From assembly GCA_945888435.1 (NCBI GenBank), contig CAMCZW010000002.1:14014-78013 (forward strand): a DNA stretch of 64,000 bases, written 5' to 3'. The notes beneath the pieces are model-generated. The model was not told the origin of the DNA, did no database searches, and was given only the letters and a program-made list of their open reading frames with translations. Position 1 is the stretch's first letter. Each line of letters begins with the position of its first letter. The translations under genes and the position numbers were made by a program. The stretch comes from a bacterium UBP8_UBA817. GTDB lineage: Bacteria; Margulisbacteria; Marinamargulisbacteria; SXXA01; SICP01. Positions 15,849-18,306 of the stretch are shown one piece after another.

Positions 15849-16295
15849 TTACTCAGGCTCGTCAATAAAATATTTTCGGATGATGGTGTCTAGGCTAAAT
15901 TTTCCGGGGCCGGCTGAGAAAAGGAGTAGAAATATGAGGAGATAATCAAATTCCTGTAATCTGATGAAGCTGGATATTGAGTGTAGAGCTTCGGGTTGCG
16001 CAGTTAAAATGGCGACGATCATGATGATACTTAATGGGATTGAAATGAGACGGGTGGCTAATCCTAATACCAGAAGGCATCCTCCGATCAATTCTGTGGA
16101 ACTTGCCGTTAAGGCGTTTATTCCTGGGAACGGTATCCCTAAATCAGCAAAAAACATCGTGGTATCACCCAAATGGGTTAATTTTCCTAGGCCGGTTTGA
16201 ATAAAAATAAGTCCAATCGTAAGCCGTATCACAAAAAGAATGATGTCGGGAGTTAACCCCCCAATATAGGATTTTATTTTATTAATTAATGGCAT
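15849..16295 (-). CDS. DoxX family membrane protein (last gene of the MNIO RiPP operon)
   Basis: 148 aa with four predicted TM helices. DoxX-like FVIRLTIGLIFIQTGLGKL. Confidence 0.75.
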   Translation of the reverse strand: MPLINKIKSYIGGLTPDIILFVIRLTIGLIFIQTGLGKLTHLGDTTMFFADLGIPFPGINALTASSTELIGGCLLVLGLATRLISIPLSIIMIVAILTAQPEALHSISSFIRLQEFDYLLIFLLLFSAGPGKFSLDTIIRKYFIDEPE

Positions 16296-16314
16296 TGGAT
16301 TCTCCTTTAGAGTA

Positions 16315-17121
16315 TTAGACTCTCTTTGTTAGCCATTGTAACTGCACTGTGTCTTTAAACAAAGTTTGAAGTGTACTCTCAGTGGTTTGGGCTTCTTTGG
16401 GAGTGAGTTCTGAGAAGGCTTTTTCGATGGCCAGGTGAAGCGGGTAGCCTTTGTCGATTTCGGTTAACAGTAAATAGCCGCCTTTGGTCAGTGTGTACGA
16501 TTCAAAATAATCATTCTGTTGAAAAATGGCTAAGTAACACTCTTTTTTCTTGGGTTTTTTGAGGGTGTCGTTGCTGATCCAGGTTGGCCAATCATAGGTG
16601 AGGTGCAGGAGGGAAAGGTGGGGTTGCAGTCTAAATCTCATTTGAGTGAGAGCTTTGGGGTCTTGGTGGTATTTTTTGCTGTTGAAGGCAGGTTTGTGGG
16701 GTGCAAATGCAGCAAATAGAGTGGCCCATTCATACCTAGCGAGTTCGATGACTTGAGCTTGGTCTCTTTGAGTATAGGCGGTTTTTAAAAATGGGAGTAA
16801 GTCTTGGCCGAGGTGAGAGAGTGTGAATGACCTTGATGGGTAGGCATCGAGGTACGATGTCATCCAGATCCTAAAATTTTCGTTACCCATCCATCGTCTT
16901 AGTCCCGGGAAGTCGGCTTCGAGTGCATCGAGACATCGGGGCCAGTAATCCGAAATATAAATTTTTAGCCGTTCCTGAGAGTCTAAAAATGTGGACCTTG
17001 TGAGATAGTGGCCGGATTCCGCATCGGCCAATTCACGCTGGATTGGGTCAAGAGTTCGGATGGCTGTAGATAGCCATTGTTGGGTTTTGATTAGTGATGC
17101 TGGTGGTTTAGGTGGGTGCAT
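16315..17121 (-). CDS. DUF2063-family partner protein of the MNIO enzyme (HvfC/BufC/MbnC-like)
   Basis: 268 aa. Overlaps the upstream DUF692 gene by 14 nt. Its position and size fit the obligatory partner subunit in MNIO clusters. Confidence 0.65.
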   Translation of the reverse strand: MHPPKPPASLIKTQQWLSTAIRTLDPIQRELADAESGHYLTRSTFLDSQERLKIYISDYWPRCLDALEADFPGLRRWMGNENFRIWMTSYLDAYPSRSFTLSHLGQDLLPFLKTAYTQRDQAQVIELARYEWATLFAAFAPHKPAFNSKKYHQDPKALTQMRFRLQPHLSLLHLTYDWPTWISNDTLKKPKKKECYLAIFQQNDYFESYTLTKGGYLLLTEIDKGYPLHLAIEKAFSELTPKEAQTTESTLQTLFKDTVQLQWLTKRV

Positions 17122-17956
17122 AGATGTTTTTTGTATAGATGGCCTTGGCGTGATTGAGTTCTTCTAATAGCTCAGAAAGTGGGGGGATGTGATCGTCACG
17201 TTCAATCATGACAGAGACATCTCCCATTAATGGTACAGTTTTGGCAAATAGGTCCCATACTTCGTCTCTTACCGGGCGGTCATGGCTATCTAATACATAG
17301 GTGCCGTGATCCTGGTGGCCCGCAATATGATATTGGATGACGCGGTTAGCGGGGATGCCACGGACGTAGTCCATCGGGTCAAAATGGTGATTTCTGGAGG
17401 ATACATAGATATTGTTTACATCTAATAAAATTCCGCAATCGGCGGTTTCGGCAATGGCTTTTATAAATTCCCATTCTGTCATTTCGGATTCTTGAAACTC
17501 AACATAACTGGATAGGTTTTCGATGAGAAATGGAATGCCCATGGTGTCTTGGATGATGGCGATTTTTTTTGCGACATACTCTACGGTTTCTTGGGTGTAG
17601 GGCAGTGGAAGTAGGTTATGCATATGGGCGCCACCAACGCCGGCCCAGCAAAGATGGTCTGAAAACCAGGGGGGATTTAAATAGGAGAGGAGTGCTTTTA
17701 ATCTTTTGAGATGGGGTTTATCAAGTGCATCTGCGCTACCCAGTGAAAGAGAAACACCATGTGGAATGACTGTGTATTTTTCTTTAAATGGGGCGAGCGT
17801 ATGGGGGCCTTGTCCGCCGTCGAGCATATAGTTTTCCGATATAATTTCTAGCCAATCAACCTGGCCAGAAGACGACAAGAGCTCCTCATAATGAGGAGCT
17901 CTAAGTCCTAGTCCGAATCCTAAAAATGGAACATCAAATCGTTTTTTGATTGCCAT
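17108..17956 (-). CDS. DUF692 / MNIO (multinuclear non-heme iron oxidative) RiPP-modifying enzyme (HvfB/BufB/MbnB-like)
   Basis: 282 aa. TIM-barrel UPF0276 hallmarks: LGFGLGLR..H, WLEIISENY, FSDHLCW, LIEN, HIAGH. Confidence 0.8.
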   Translation of the reverse strand: MAIKKRFDVPFLGFGLGLRAPHYEELLSSSGQVDWLEIISENYMLDGGQGPHTLAPFKEKYTVIPHGVSLSLGSADALDKPHLKRLKALLSYLNPPWFSDHLCWAGVGGAHMHNLLPLPYTQETVEYVAKKIAIIQDTMGIPFLIENLSSYVEFQESEMTEWEFIKAIAETADCGILLDVNNIYVSSRNHHFDPMDYVRGIPANRVIQYHIAGHQDHGTYVLDSHDRPVRDEVWDLFAKTVPLMGDVSVMIERDDHIPPLSELLEELNHAKAIYTKNIYAPT

Positions 17957-17967
17957 TTAAATAGAAA

Positions 17968-18306
17968 TTATTTTTTTGCTGCTGGAGCTGCTTTCGCTTC
18001 TGCTGCTGGAGCTGTTTTCGCTGCTGGAGCTACTTTAACAGTTTTTGCAGTTGCTTTTGTTGCTGGAGCGGCTACTGCTGCTTTACATCCATTAGCGCCT
18101 TTGCATTTGTTTTTATCTGCTGGAGCTGCTTTCGCTTCTGCTGGAGCTACTGTTGTTGCTTTAACTTCAGTTGCTTTTGTTGTTGTTTTAACAGCAGTTG
18201 TTTTTGTTGCTTTTGCTGCTGCTGCTGGAGCGTCTGCTGCGTGTGCAACTCCGCCTAAAGATACTAAACCGGCTAACGCTAACATGACTAATTGAGACTT
18301 TTTCAT
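17968..18306 (-). CDS. Secreted RiPP precursor peptide (Sec signal peptide + A/K/T-rich low-complexity region with a single C-x5-C core)
   Basis: 112 aa. MKKSQLVMLALAGLVSLGGVAHA|ADAP...DKNKCKGANGCKAAV...AAKK. It sits 12 nt upstream of the MNIO gene on the same strand. The only two Cys are in KCKGANGCK. Confidence 0.7.
   Translation of the reverse strand: MKKSQLVMLALAGLVSLGGVAHAADAPAAAAKATKTTAVKTTTKATEVKATTVAPAEAKAAPADKNKCKGANGCKAAVAAPATKATAKTVKVAPAAKTAPAAEAKAAPAAKK

Follow-up and report, generated by a model that had tools for sequence, protein, structure and literature searches.

Bufferins are peptides made on the ribosome and modified after translation (RiPPs) whose core biosynthetic gene cluster runs in the order precursor, MNIO enzyme, partner protein and DoxX protein (PMC11626156, PMC12452194). 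In Caulobacter, BufB and BufC are together necessary and sufficient to convert the central cysteines of BufA1 and BufA2 into 5-thiooxazoles, with a loss of 4 Da at each. The Sec signal peptide of the precursor is cleaved at its predicted site and is dispensable for modification, for which DoxX is not required either (PMC11626156). Installation of 5-thiooxazoles is common to all characterized MNIO–PME1 pairs (PMC13097082). The modified Bufferin 1 carries two of them and forms a 1:1 copper complex of very high affinity with 2N2S coordination (PMC11626156), and fontiphorin carries seven and binds up to four copper ions (PMC13097082). Hundreds of unclassified signal-peptide open reading frames (ORFs) with 1–18 Cys precede such MNIO genes (PMC12452194), so that a precursor belonging to no described family is to be expected in kind. 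Here we describe an operon of this type at positions 15849–18306 of a 64-kb stretch of contig CAMCZW010000002.1; the whole stretch is referred to below as the window.

The locus is probably a functional bufferin/captophorin-type Cys-Lys RiPP operon on the chromosome, for which we infer the modification chemistry, the modified cysteines, copper binding and co-transcription. Judged from its sequence, it belongs to the Cys-Lys class of the bufferin/captophorin MNIO–PME1 systems, with a precursor that falls outside the BufA2, BufA1, EGKCG/oxazolin and CxxxxC families. What is new is the clade to which it belongs, in which the precursors are disordered with hexapeptide-spaced cysteines and the partners have diverged along with them; the minimal member, with two Cys, that the window contributes to it; and the occurrence in Margulisbacteria. 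The name "Margulis" does not appear in the searched parts of the supplementary material of PMC13097082 and PMC12452194, the main texts lying outside that search. The clade motifs CSGKDGC, CKGANGC and NGCKG do not appear in the published supplementary tables, which are partial or list accessions only. The operon consists of four consecutive minus-strand ORFs, in the order precursor, MNIO, DUF2063 partner and DoxX, with the following features:

17968..18306, minus strand: precursor gene, 112 aa; ORF with the Shine–Dalgarno sequence AGGAGG 7 nt upstream
18085..18105, minus strand: core codons C68-K-G-A-N-G-C74 (tgc aaa ggc gct aat gga tgt, as read from the sequence); predicted site of modification and copper binding
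approximately A60–A80 of the precursor: APADKNKCKGANGCKAAVAAPA, spanning the Cys core
18151..18209, minus strand: 27-nt tandem repeat, 2.2 copies, encoding the N-terminal K-A-T-K-T-T-A-V arm of the precursor (Tandem Repeats Finder: 87% matches, score 90)
17977..18026, minus strand: 24-nt tandem repeat, 2.1 copies, encoding the C-terminal (A-A-P-A-A-x-A-K)-like arm (Tandem Repeats Finder: 92% matches, score 86)
17108..17956, minus strand: MNIO (DUF692) enzyme, BufB-type, 282 aa (PF05114, NCBIfam MNIO_BufB)
16315..17121, minus strand: DUF2063 protein, type-1 partner of MNIO enzymes, BufC/HvfC-like, 268 aa (PF09836)
15849..16295, minus strand: DoxX-family membrane protein, BufD/HvfX-like, 148 aa (PF07681)

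All four genes lie where the initial annotation had placed them, co-directional on the minus strand, and they were re-called on 14 public contigs. These contigs, including NCBI assembly GCA_947493445.1, carry an identical MNIO and the same four genes, and the 112-aa precursor gene is called with identical sequence on all contigs examined. The contigs stem from lakes (samples ERZ27280263, ERZ27280213). The junctions had been put at 4–14 nt: the 11-nt gap from precursor stop to MNIO start and the 14-nt overlap of the MNIO and DUF2063 genes agree with this range, whereas the gap from DUF2063 to DoxX measures 19 nt. The MNIO and partner genes have no ribosome-binding site, unlike the precursor gene, and DoxX has a Shine–Dalgarno sequence of its own (AAGGAG). 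Scans of the region for promoters and terminators gave no excess over shuffled expectation, and a scan against Rfam gave chance-level matches only.

With Bufferin 2 (BufA2–BufB2–BufC2; Buf_6/12Cys; Caulobacter vibrioides, Legionella; PMC11626156, PMC12452194) the operon shares the gene order, a Sec-exported precursor, the N-x-C-K-G motif and the 6-residue Cys spacing. The MNIO scores above the BufB cut-off, its nearest homologues outside the clade (50–59% identity) nearly all stand with BufA2-type precursors, and a DoxX gene is present, as in many Buf2 clusters. However, the precursor has two Cys instead of 6 or 12, and it has neither a Cys I/Cys VI disulfide pair nor a C-terminal folded part. 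It is also predicted to be disordered, the partner is strongly diverged from Buf2-type partners, and the host is probably a member of Margulisbacteria, not of Pseudomonadota. The captophorin Cys-Lys group (Gadgil et al., PMC13097082) has the same pair of MNIO and PME1 (DUF2063), a Cys-Lys precursor and the Asp of the ERD-D motif. Precursors of that group carry, by definition, several Cys-Lys motifs or repeats of them, whereas the window precursor has two only and its Cys unit is unrepeated.

Likeness to the other described systems is more partial in each case. Bufferin 1 (BufA1, DUF2282) has the same four-gene core including DoxX, and two thiooxazoles per one copper site are predicted here as well. 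BufA1 is folded, however, with four Cys and a stabilizing disulfide, and its operons include sigma/anti-sigma regulators, whereas the window precursor lacks both a DUF2282 match and a disulfide pair, and no regulator stands nearby. Oxazolin, fontiphorin and gonophorin (HvfA, FonA, NgoA) resemble the window system in their low-complexity, repeat-type exported precursors, enzyme superfamily, partner type and DoxX/HvfX-type gene. They differ in the EGKCG motif, which is absent from the window precursor and from every short ORF of the window; the window enzyme reaches 261.7 bits on the HvfB model against a cut-off of 360, and has Asp in place of the FonB Phe. The MNIO fold and the presumed iron ligands are shared with methanobactin MbnBC, but the window MNIO is distant from MbnB (E 5e-16, 58.9 bits against a cut-off of 325). 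Methanobactin biosynthesis moreover involves the MbnC type of partner, a precursor that is not Sec-exported and oxazolone–thioamide chemistry, and serves copper acquisition.

The bufferin/HvfA-like MNIO organization proposed in the initial annotation is borne out by the gene order, which is that of the core bufferin cluster, and by the enzyme itself. The product of 17108–17956 matches PF05114 with 351.3 bits (threshold 25, E 3.9e-105) and exceeds the cut-off of the NCBIfam equivalog NF050167 MNIO_BufB, "MNIO family bufferin maturase" (343.9 bits against 310). It stays under the respective cut-offs of the HvfB, ApyH, MbnB and ChrH models. Its best solved relative is PDB 3BWW, a DUF692 structure from Histophilus somni (E 2.4e-47). 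Two further families that had been named for checking, PF09836 and PF07681, are likewise matched by the respective proteins.

Residues were compared in an alignment of the window MNIO with 162 homologues from genome and metagenome loci. Ten positions considered here are invariant across the 163 sequences: H66, H101, E146, D179, N182, H210, D223, H225 and E252, which we take to be the iron ligands, and D254. The iron-binding His and Glu residues, on which the initial annotation had made its reading depend, are thus all present. N182, D223 and H225 were mapped by motif to HvfB, and the remaining ligand assignments follow the MbnB structures. By motif position, these three residues correspond to HvfB N175, D242 and H244, site-3 residues whose substitution abolishes activity (bioRxiv 10.64898/2026.07.17.739211). 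D254 corresponds, again by motif position, to FonB-D249, the catalytic base.

The next residue bears on substrate class. The position of FonB-Phe250 is occupied by Phe in Lys-Cys (EGKCG) enzymes and by Asp in Cys-Lys enzymes, where the Asp has been modelled as contacting the substrate lysine (PMC13097082). The ERD-D motif of the window enzyme carries that Asp (D255), and the second Arg of the Lys-Cys class is absent. D255 is found in 132 of the 163 aligned MNIOs, mostly in enzymes paired with CK-rich precursors. We take it as the Cys-Lys-substrate signature, and it matches the Lys that follows both cysteines of the window precursor.

A Gly at window position 255 is found at several Buf2-type loci (L013, L067, L080, L081, L121, L128 and others). 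The precursors standing with these enzymes mostly have Cys-Ala or Cys-Thr, with a mean of 1.1 CK motifs against 3.3. This covariation of Gly or Asp at position 255 with CK content fits the specificity role proposed for the residue in PMC13097082.

The partner protein matches PF09836 (DUF2063) over residues 13–112 with 54.1 bits (cut-off 27.2, E 2e-14); its membership of this family was the other point on which the initial annotation had made the RiPP-modifying pair depend. It also aligns with the NCBIfam HvfC model over residues 49–260 (model positions 23–230 of 237; E 1e-15), where its 58.3 bits lie below the equivalog cut-off of 142. The DoxX protein possesses hydrophobic segments and matches PF07681 with 72.9 bits (cut-off 23.6, E 3.4e-20); on the NCBIfam HvfX family model it scores 78.6 bits, just under the cut-off of 80.

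The precursor (17968–18306) begins with a Sec-type signal peptide of residues 1–23. Rule-based inspection of the sequence gives an n-region MKKSQ, a hydrophobic core at 4–21 and a predicted cleavage site between AHA and AD, and the same inspection finds no lipobox. The mature part of 89 aa is 88% Ala/Lys/Thr/Pro/Val, with an isoelectric point of 10.1, a net charge of +12 and a calculated monoisotopic mass of 8434.65 Da. Only two cysteines are present, Cys68 and Cys74, in the core DKNKCKGANGCKA; each stands in an N-x-C-K context, and the two form a C-x5-C with 6-residue spacing. Parts of both arms around this core are encoded by the recent tandem DNA repeats of 27 nt and 24 nt. A single-sequence AlphaFold model has a mean pLDDT of 46.7 with a lone helical turn of three residues. 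The precursor is predicted to be disordered, the low pLDDT being weak evidence alone but agreeing with the composition.

The initial annotation had expected a new peptide, and the family comparisons agree with it. These searches report matches to E ≤ 10, while HMMER filters drop most matches above about 0.1. At this level the precursor is unlisted for NF050166 (BufA2), on which a control, the precursor of locus L031, reaches 91.7 bits against a cut-off of 60, and it has no listed match to DUF2282. It reaches 4.1 bits on a hidden Markov model that was made here from 81 Buf2 precursors. In a pattern test made without the authors' model, its C-x5-C does not match the C-x4-C of the CxxxxC family. 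Searching the window for another candidate precursor found none.

The scans for related MNIO genes covered one genome per species (GTDB) and JGI metagenomes, and returned 160 loci. Nearly all of these have an MNIO 50–59% identical to that of the window, most of them preceded by a six- or twelve-Cys BufA2-type precursor. The metagenome scan gave Buf2-type relatives only, at ≤ 58% identity and none closer than those of the GTDB scan. Closer relatives were GTDB locus L007 and others obtained by a protein search followed by contig look-ups:

L170: MNIO 80% identical (the value of its cluster representative); 4 Cys; two EKNKCKGxNGCQTKAAPA copies, then an (AAPAAxAAK)n tail
L007: MNIO 67%; 7 Cys; CSGKEGCKSK-type repeats
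L169: MNIO 64%; 7 Cys; six consecutive 6-residue Cys spacings, CSGKDG-type repeats
L173: MNIO 63%; 6 Cys; CK motifs
L172: MNIO 63%; 7 Cys; CK motifs
L167: MNIO 62%; 5 Cys; CK motifs
L174: MNIO 61%; 7 Cys; CKGKNGCKGKDA repeats
L175: MNIO 59%; 3 Cys; CK motifs; MNIO labelled Candidatus Margulisbacteria in NCBI

Together with the window enzyme, these eight MNIOs form an exclusive bipartition of nine in a neighbour-joining tree of 167 sequences. All eight loci have a signal-peptide, Cys-bearing ORF directly upstream of the MNIO gene. The clade precursors are of low complexity after an MKKxQL...AG(L) signal, mostly K/A/T/S-rich and A/P-rich in L170, and contain 2–7 Cys in CK or CS(G)K repeats, the window precursor having the fewest. 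Their cysteines are most often spaced by 6 residues, like those of the window precursor, and Lys directly follows Cys in 34 of 48 cases. The partners diverge along with them: against the window partner, those of the same clade score 80–332 bits and Buf2-type ones at most 76 bits.

The strongest evidence for translation of the precursor ORF, and for constraint on its Cys unit, comes from the DNA alignment of the window with L170. Conservation extends to the ribosome-binding site, the signal peptide and the core, while the flanks differ by repeat expansion. The differences across KNKCKGANGC are five synonymous ones and no non-synonymous one. In each L170 unit, Gln and not Lys comes after the second Cys. 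A contig of 150 kb (IMG 3300059473) with an 80%-identical MNIO carries, in order, SelR, PGI, a GlmU-like gene, a 122-aa precursor, MNIO, DUF2063, DoxX, a radical-SAM gene, a gene for a 516-aa protein and DnaB; this neighbourhood, shared with the window, identifies the locus as vertically inherited chromosomal DNA.

The public gene call at L170, a 96-aa Gln/Lys-rich protein, is an artefact. At 580–605 of the ENA scaffold (TSEM16-1...45037), an assembly gap of 24 N within the precursor gene shifts the called frame; read in its true frame, the gene has two KNKCKGxNGC units followed by an Ala/Pro/Lys tail. Two further loci show precursors of other kinds ahead of BufB-like MNIO genes. That of L076, from a metagenome-assembled genome (MAG) of Polyangiaceae, is Ala/Pro-rich and disordered with CKGxNDCKGK repeats, clade-like yet outside the clade. 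That of L074, from a Coxiellaceae MAG, is of the lipoprotein type, 63 aa long, and contains 16 Cys, being rich in CC and CxxC.

For the window operon we propose the following sequence of events. The four genes would be transcribed together, the precursor being translated from its strong ribosome-binding site and the enzyme and partner genes, which have none, probably by translational coupling. In the cytoplasm, a complex of MNIO and DUF2063 protein, using its iron cluster and O2, would oxidize Cys68 and Cys74 by four electrons each, turning each into a 5-thiooxazole with a loss of 4 Da. Both are expected to be modified, since, like the cysteines that are modified in Buf2, both stand in N-x-C-K, and since the enzyme has the signature residue Asp255. 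The modified precursor would then be exported by Sec and cleaved after Ala23, giving a disordered cationic chain of 89 residues with one pair of thiooxazoles six residues apart. This pair may form a single copper site of the 2N2S type that sequesters periplasmic copper, and DoxX would be a membrane-bound accessory without which the modification can still proceed. The weakest link of the proposal is copper as the physiological ligand, as nothing in the neighbourhood points to this metal.

Several observations weigh against this reading of the locus. The register of the window core against BufA2 is ambiguous, three modules tying at 7/14 identities, so that Cys68 could match the unmodified Cys I of Buf2. 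The Pfam family NGO1945_C, an RRE-like (RiPP recognition element) peptide-recognition domain, matches four of 21 aligned partners, the window partner not among them; a profile search of PDB sequences with that partner gave no match, and its single-sequence AlphaFold model (pLDDT 44.9) is too poor to use. The 64 kb contain no copper-resistance or copper-homeostasis genes, CsoR/CueR-type regulators or sigma/anti-sigma pairs. The precursor falls into no defined family of Pfam or NCBIfam, its one Pfam match of 9.5 bits being spurious. A word-indexed search of 5.8 billion proteins with the precursor scored nothing, and an exhaustive phmmer search of 1.84 billion representatives gave no relatives. 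These nulls carry little weight on whether a family exists, because neither search returned the precursor itself or its 80% relative; presumably they failed through low complexity and composition correction, not through absence of a family. The status of the peptide as the substrate rests on its position, its signal peptide and the conserved Cys core.

The ambiguous register leaves room for a variant with the same operon and chemistry in which one Cys only, more likely Cys74 in N-G-C-K, becomes a thiooxazole. The other would stay a thiol or enter a disulfide, and metal binding would need a second molecule or ligand. In Buf2, Cys I, the first Cys of the C-x-G-x-N-x-C-K-G module, stays unmodified (PMC11626156), and the window core fits this Cys I–Cys II module as well (7/14) as it fits two fully modified modules. 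The Gln after the second Cys of the L170 units shows the two positions to be non-equivalent, and intermolecular copper coordination has been proposed for EGKCG products (PMC13097082). However, Buf2 Cys I is not followed by Lys and has Cys VI as its disulfide partner, while a third Cys is missing from the window peptide; Lys comes after each of its two cysteines, in keeping with Asp255, and they are equally conserved against L170. We therefore hold modification of a single Cys to be unlikely. A thiooxazole peptide could also serve something other than copper buffering, such as the response to oxidative or thiol stress, the binding of another soft metal or the role of an envelope-associated redox-active polycation. 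The window is free of copper genes and copper-responsive regulators, SelR lies near the operon in both syntenic genomes, and gold and oxidative stress are further inducers of such clusters (PMC13097082), with some bufferins linked to mercury (PMC12452194); the net charge of +12 and the long disordered arms would be superfluous in a simple chelator. Yet every characterized MNIO–PME1 product binds copper (PMC11626156; PMC13097082), and Buf2 operons likewise have no adjacent regulators (PMC12452194), which makes their absence here uninformative. A role apart from copper buffering seems improbable to us.

Most radically, the 112-aa ORF might be an unrelated secreted low-complexity protein or no real gene, the substrate of the MNIO and partner being encoded elsewhere or the locus being a decaying remnant. 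The ORF has no family match and no detectable homologues, it is of low complexity and consists partly of recent tandem DNA repeats, and both precursors and MNIO genes are known to occur on their own (PMC12452194). Against this stand its strong Shine–Dalgarno sequence, its intact Sec signal and its location 11 nt upstream of the MNIO gene. This is the strictly conserved position of bufA, which in eight of the eight other clade members is also taken by a signal-peptide, Cys-bearing ORF. The Cys core is under purifying selection while the flanks drift, the window offers no other candidate precursor, and the catalytic residues of the MNIO are all intact. An unrelated or spurious ORF is, in our judgement, very improbable indeed.

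If the functional Cys-Lys reading is true, no natural substrate of a BufB-type enzyme seen here has fewer Cys than the window precursor, with its single Cys pair in a featureless chain. It would offer a ready minimal substrate for what a Cys-Lys-class MNIO and its partner recognize, and a test of whether two thiooxazoles six residues apart can make a copper site without a folded scaffold. The bufferin/captophorin strategy would be extended to the candidate phylum Margulisbacteria, while the known picture of MNIO chemistry and function is left unchanged; this is not a new type of system. Tandem repeat turnover around a small constrained core accounts for the fact that such precursors escape profile searches and are found by genomic context only.

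We speculate, with more doubt than conviction, that the window operon and its eight relatives represent a separate, possibly Margulisbacteria-centred family of bufferin-like metallophores. Its disordered polycationic precursors would quickly gain and lose repeats of hexapeptide-spaced sites, from 2 to 7 Cys, with a co-diverging partner. The window peptide would then be a natural minimal one-site form, in which a single N-x-C-K-G-x-N-x-C-K unit suffices for recognition by a Cys-Lys-type MNIO and for one copper ion, and the Ala/Lys/Pro arms may tether or space the site in the envelope.

The remainder of the window is ordinary chromosomal DNA, encoding among other such proteins UvrA, DnaB, FtsK, PGI, GAPDH, PGK, RF-1, CysRS and signal peptidase I. 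The best named relatives of UvrA belong to Candidatus Margulisiibacteriota (68%), Margulisbacteria (63%) and Marinamargulisbacteria (59–64%). The host is most likely a Margulisbacteria-like uncultured bacterium, judging by best hits and not by phylogeny. An affinity to Chlamydiae, considered for the lysine-rich peptide and a Chlamydiales match (L055), was rejected in view of the UvrA relatives and the Margulisbacteria-labelled MNIO of the clade.

The sole stress-related gene near the operon is SelR (methionine sulfoxide reductase B) at approximately 21250–21650 (locus L001, 2251–2640). It lies three genes from the precursor, with PGI and the GlmU-like gene between, in both syntenic genomes. 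At the other end, the operon is followed by a further element:

15714..15847, no strand assigned: palindromic element, 134 bp, with 31-nt arms

As had been noted in the initial annotation, this palindrome directly follows the operon; it begins 1 nt downstream of where DoxX stops. Complementarity between the arms is 81%, and its RNA folds with −76.9 kcal/mol (z = −9.2; 0 of 200 shuffles fold as well). It is most likely the 3′ hairpin of the operon transcript, and perhaps part of the system. A repeated mobile element was considered and rejected: the palindrome is single-copy in the window and absent from unrelated loci, and of 175 loci those that contain it are all contigs of the same genome. 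The gap of 196 nt that it fills separates DoxX from a QueE-like radical-SAM gene (15002–15652, minus strand). This gene runs along the opposite strand in the 80% relative, 5 nt from DoxX, whereas in the window the two are co-directional; the palindrome therefore sits at the junction of a local inversion, which it may mark or have mediated. The radical-SAM gene, although a conserved neighbour in the syntenic relative, is not counted in the system. Its resemblance to QueE is weak (61 bits against cut-offs of 200–300), and a bona fide tRNA-guanine transglycosylase is encoded elsewhere in the window (43028–44101, minus strand).

Other parts of the window contain further features of interest. A perfect palindrome of 50 bp at 6300–6349, with 25-nt arms and no spacer, is accompanied by a second inverted repeat at 6372–6424 (25 nt, 92% complementary); both stand immediately upstream of a gene encoding an AAA_14/DUF4143 ATPase (6429–7640). 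The 605-aa protein encoded at 39344–41161 (minus strand) contains the C-terminal metal-binding domain of terpene synthase family 2 (E 2.4e-16) and is possibly the product of a second specialized-metabolism gene. A SET (lysine methyltransferase) domain, uncommon in bacteria, is found in a 528-aa protein encoded at 54862–56448 (minus strand). Finally, a 521-aa ORF at 13392–14957 (plus strand), which has an N-terminal hydrophobic signal-like segment and no Pfam match, has a 516-aa counterpart next to DnaB in the relative.

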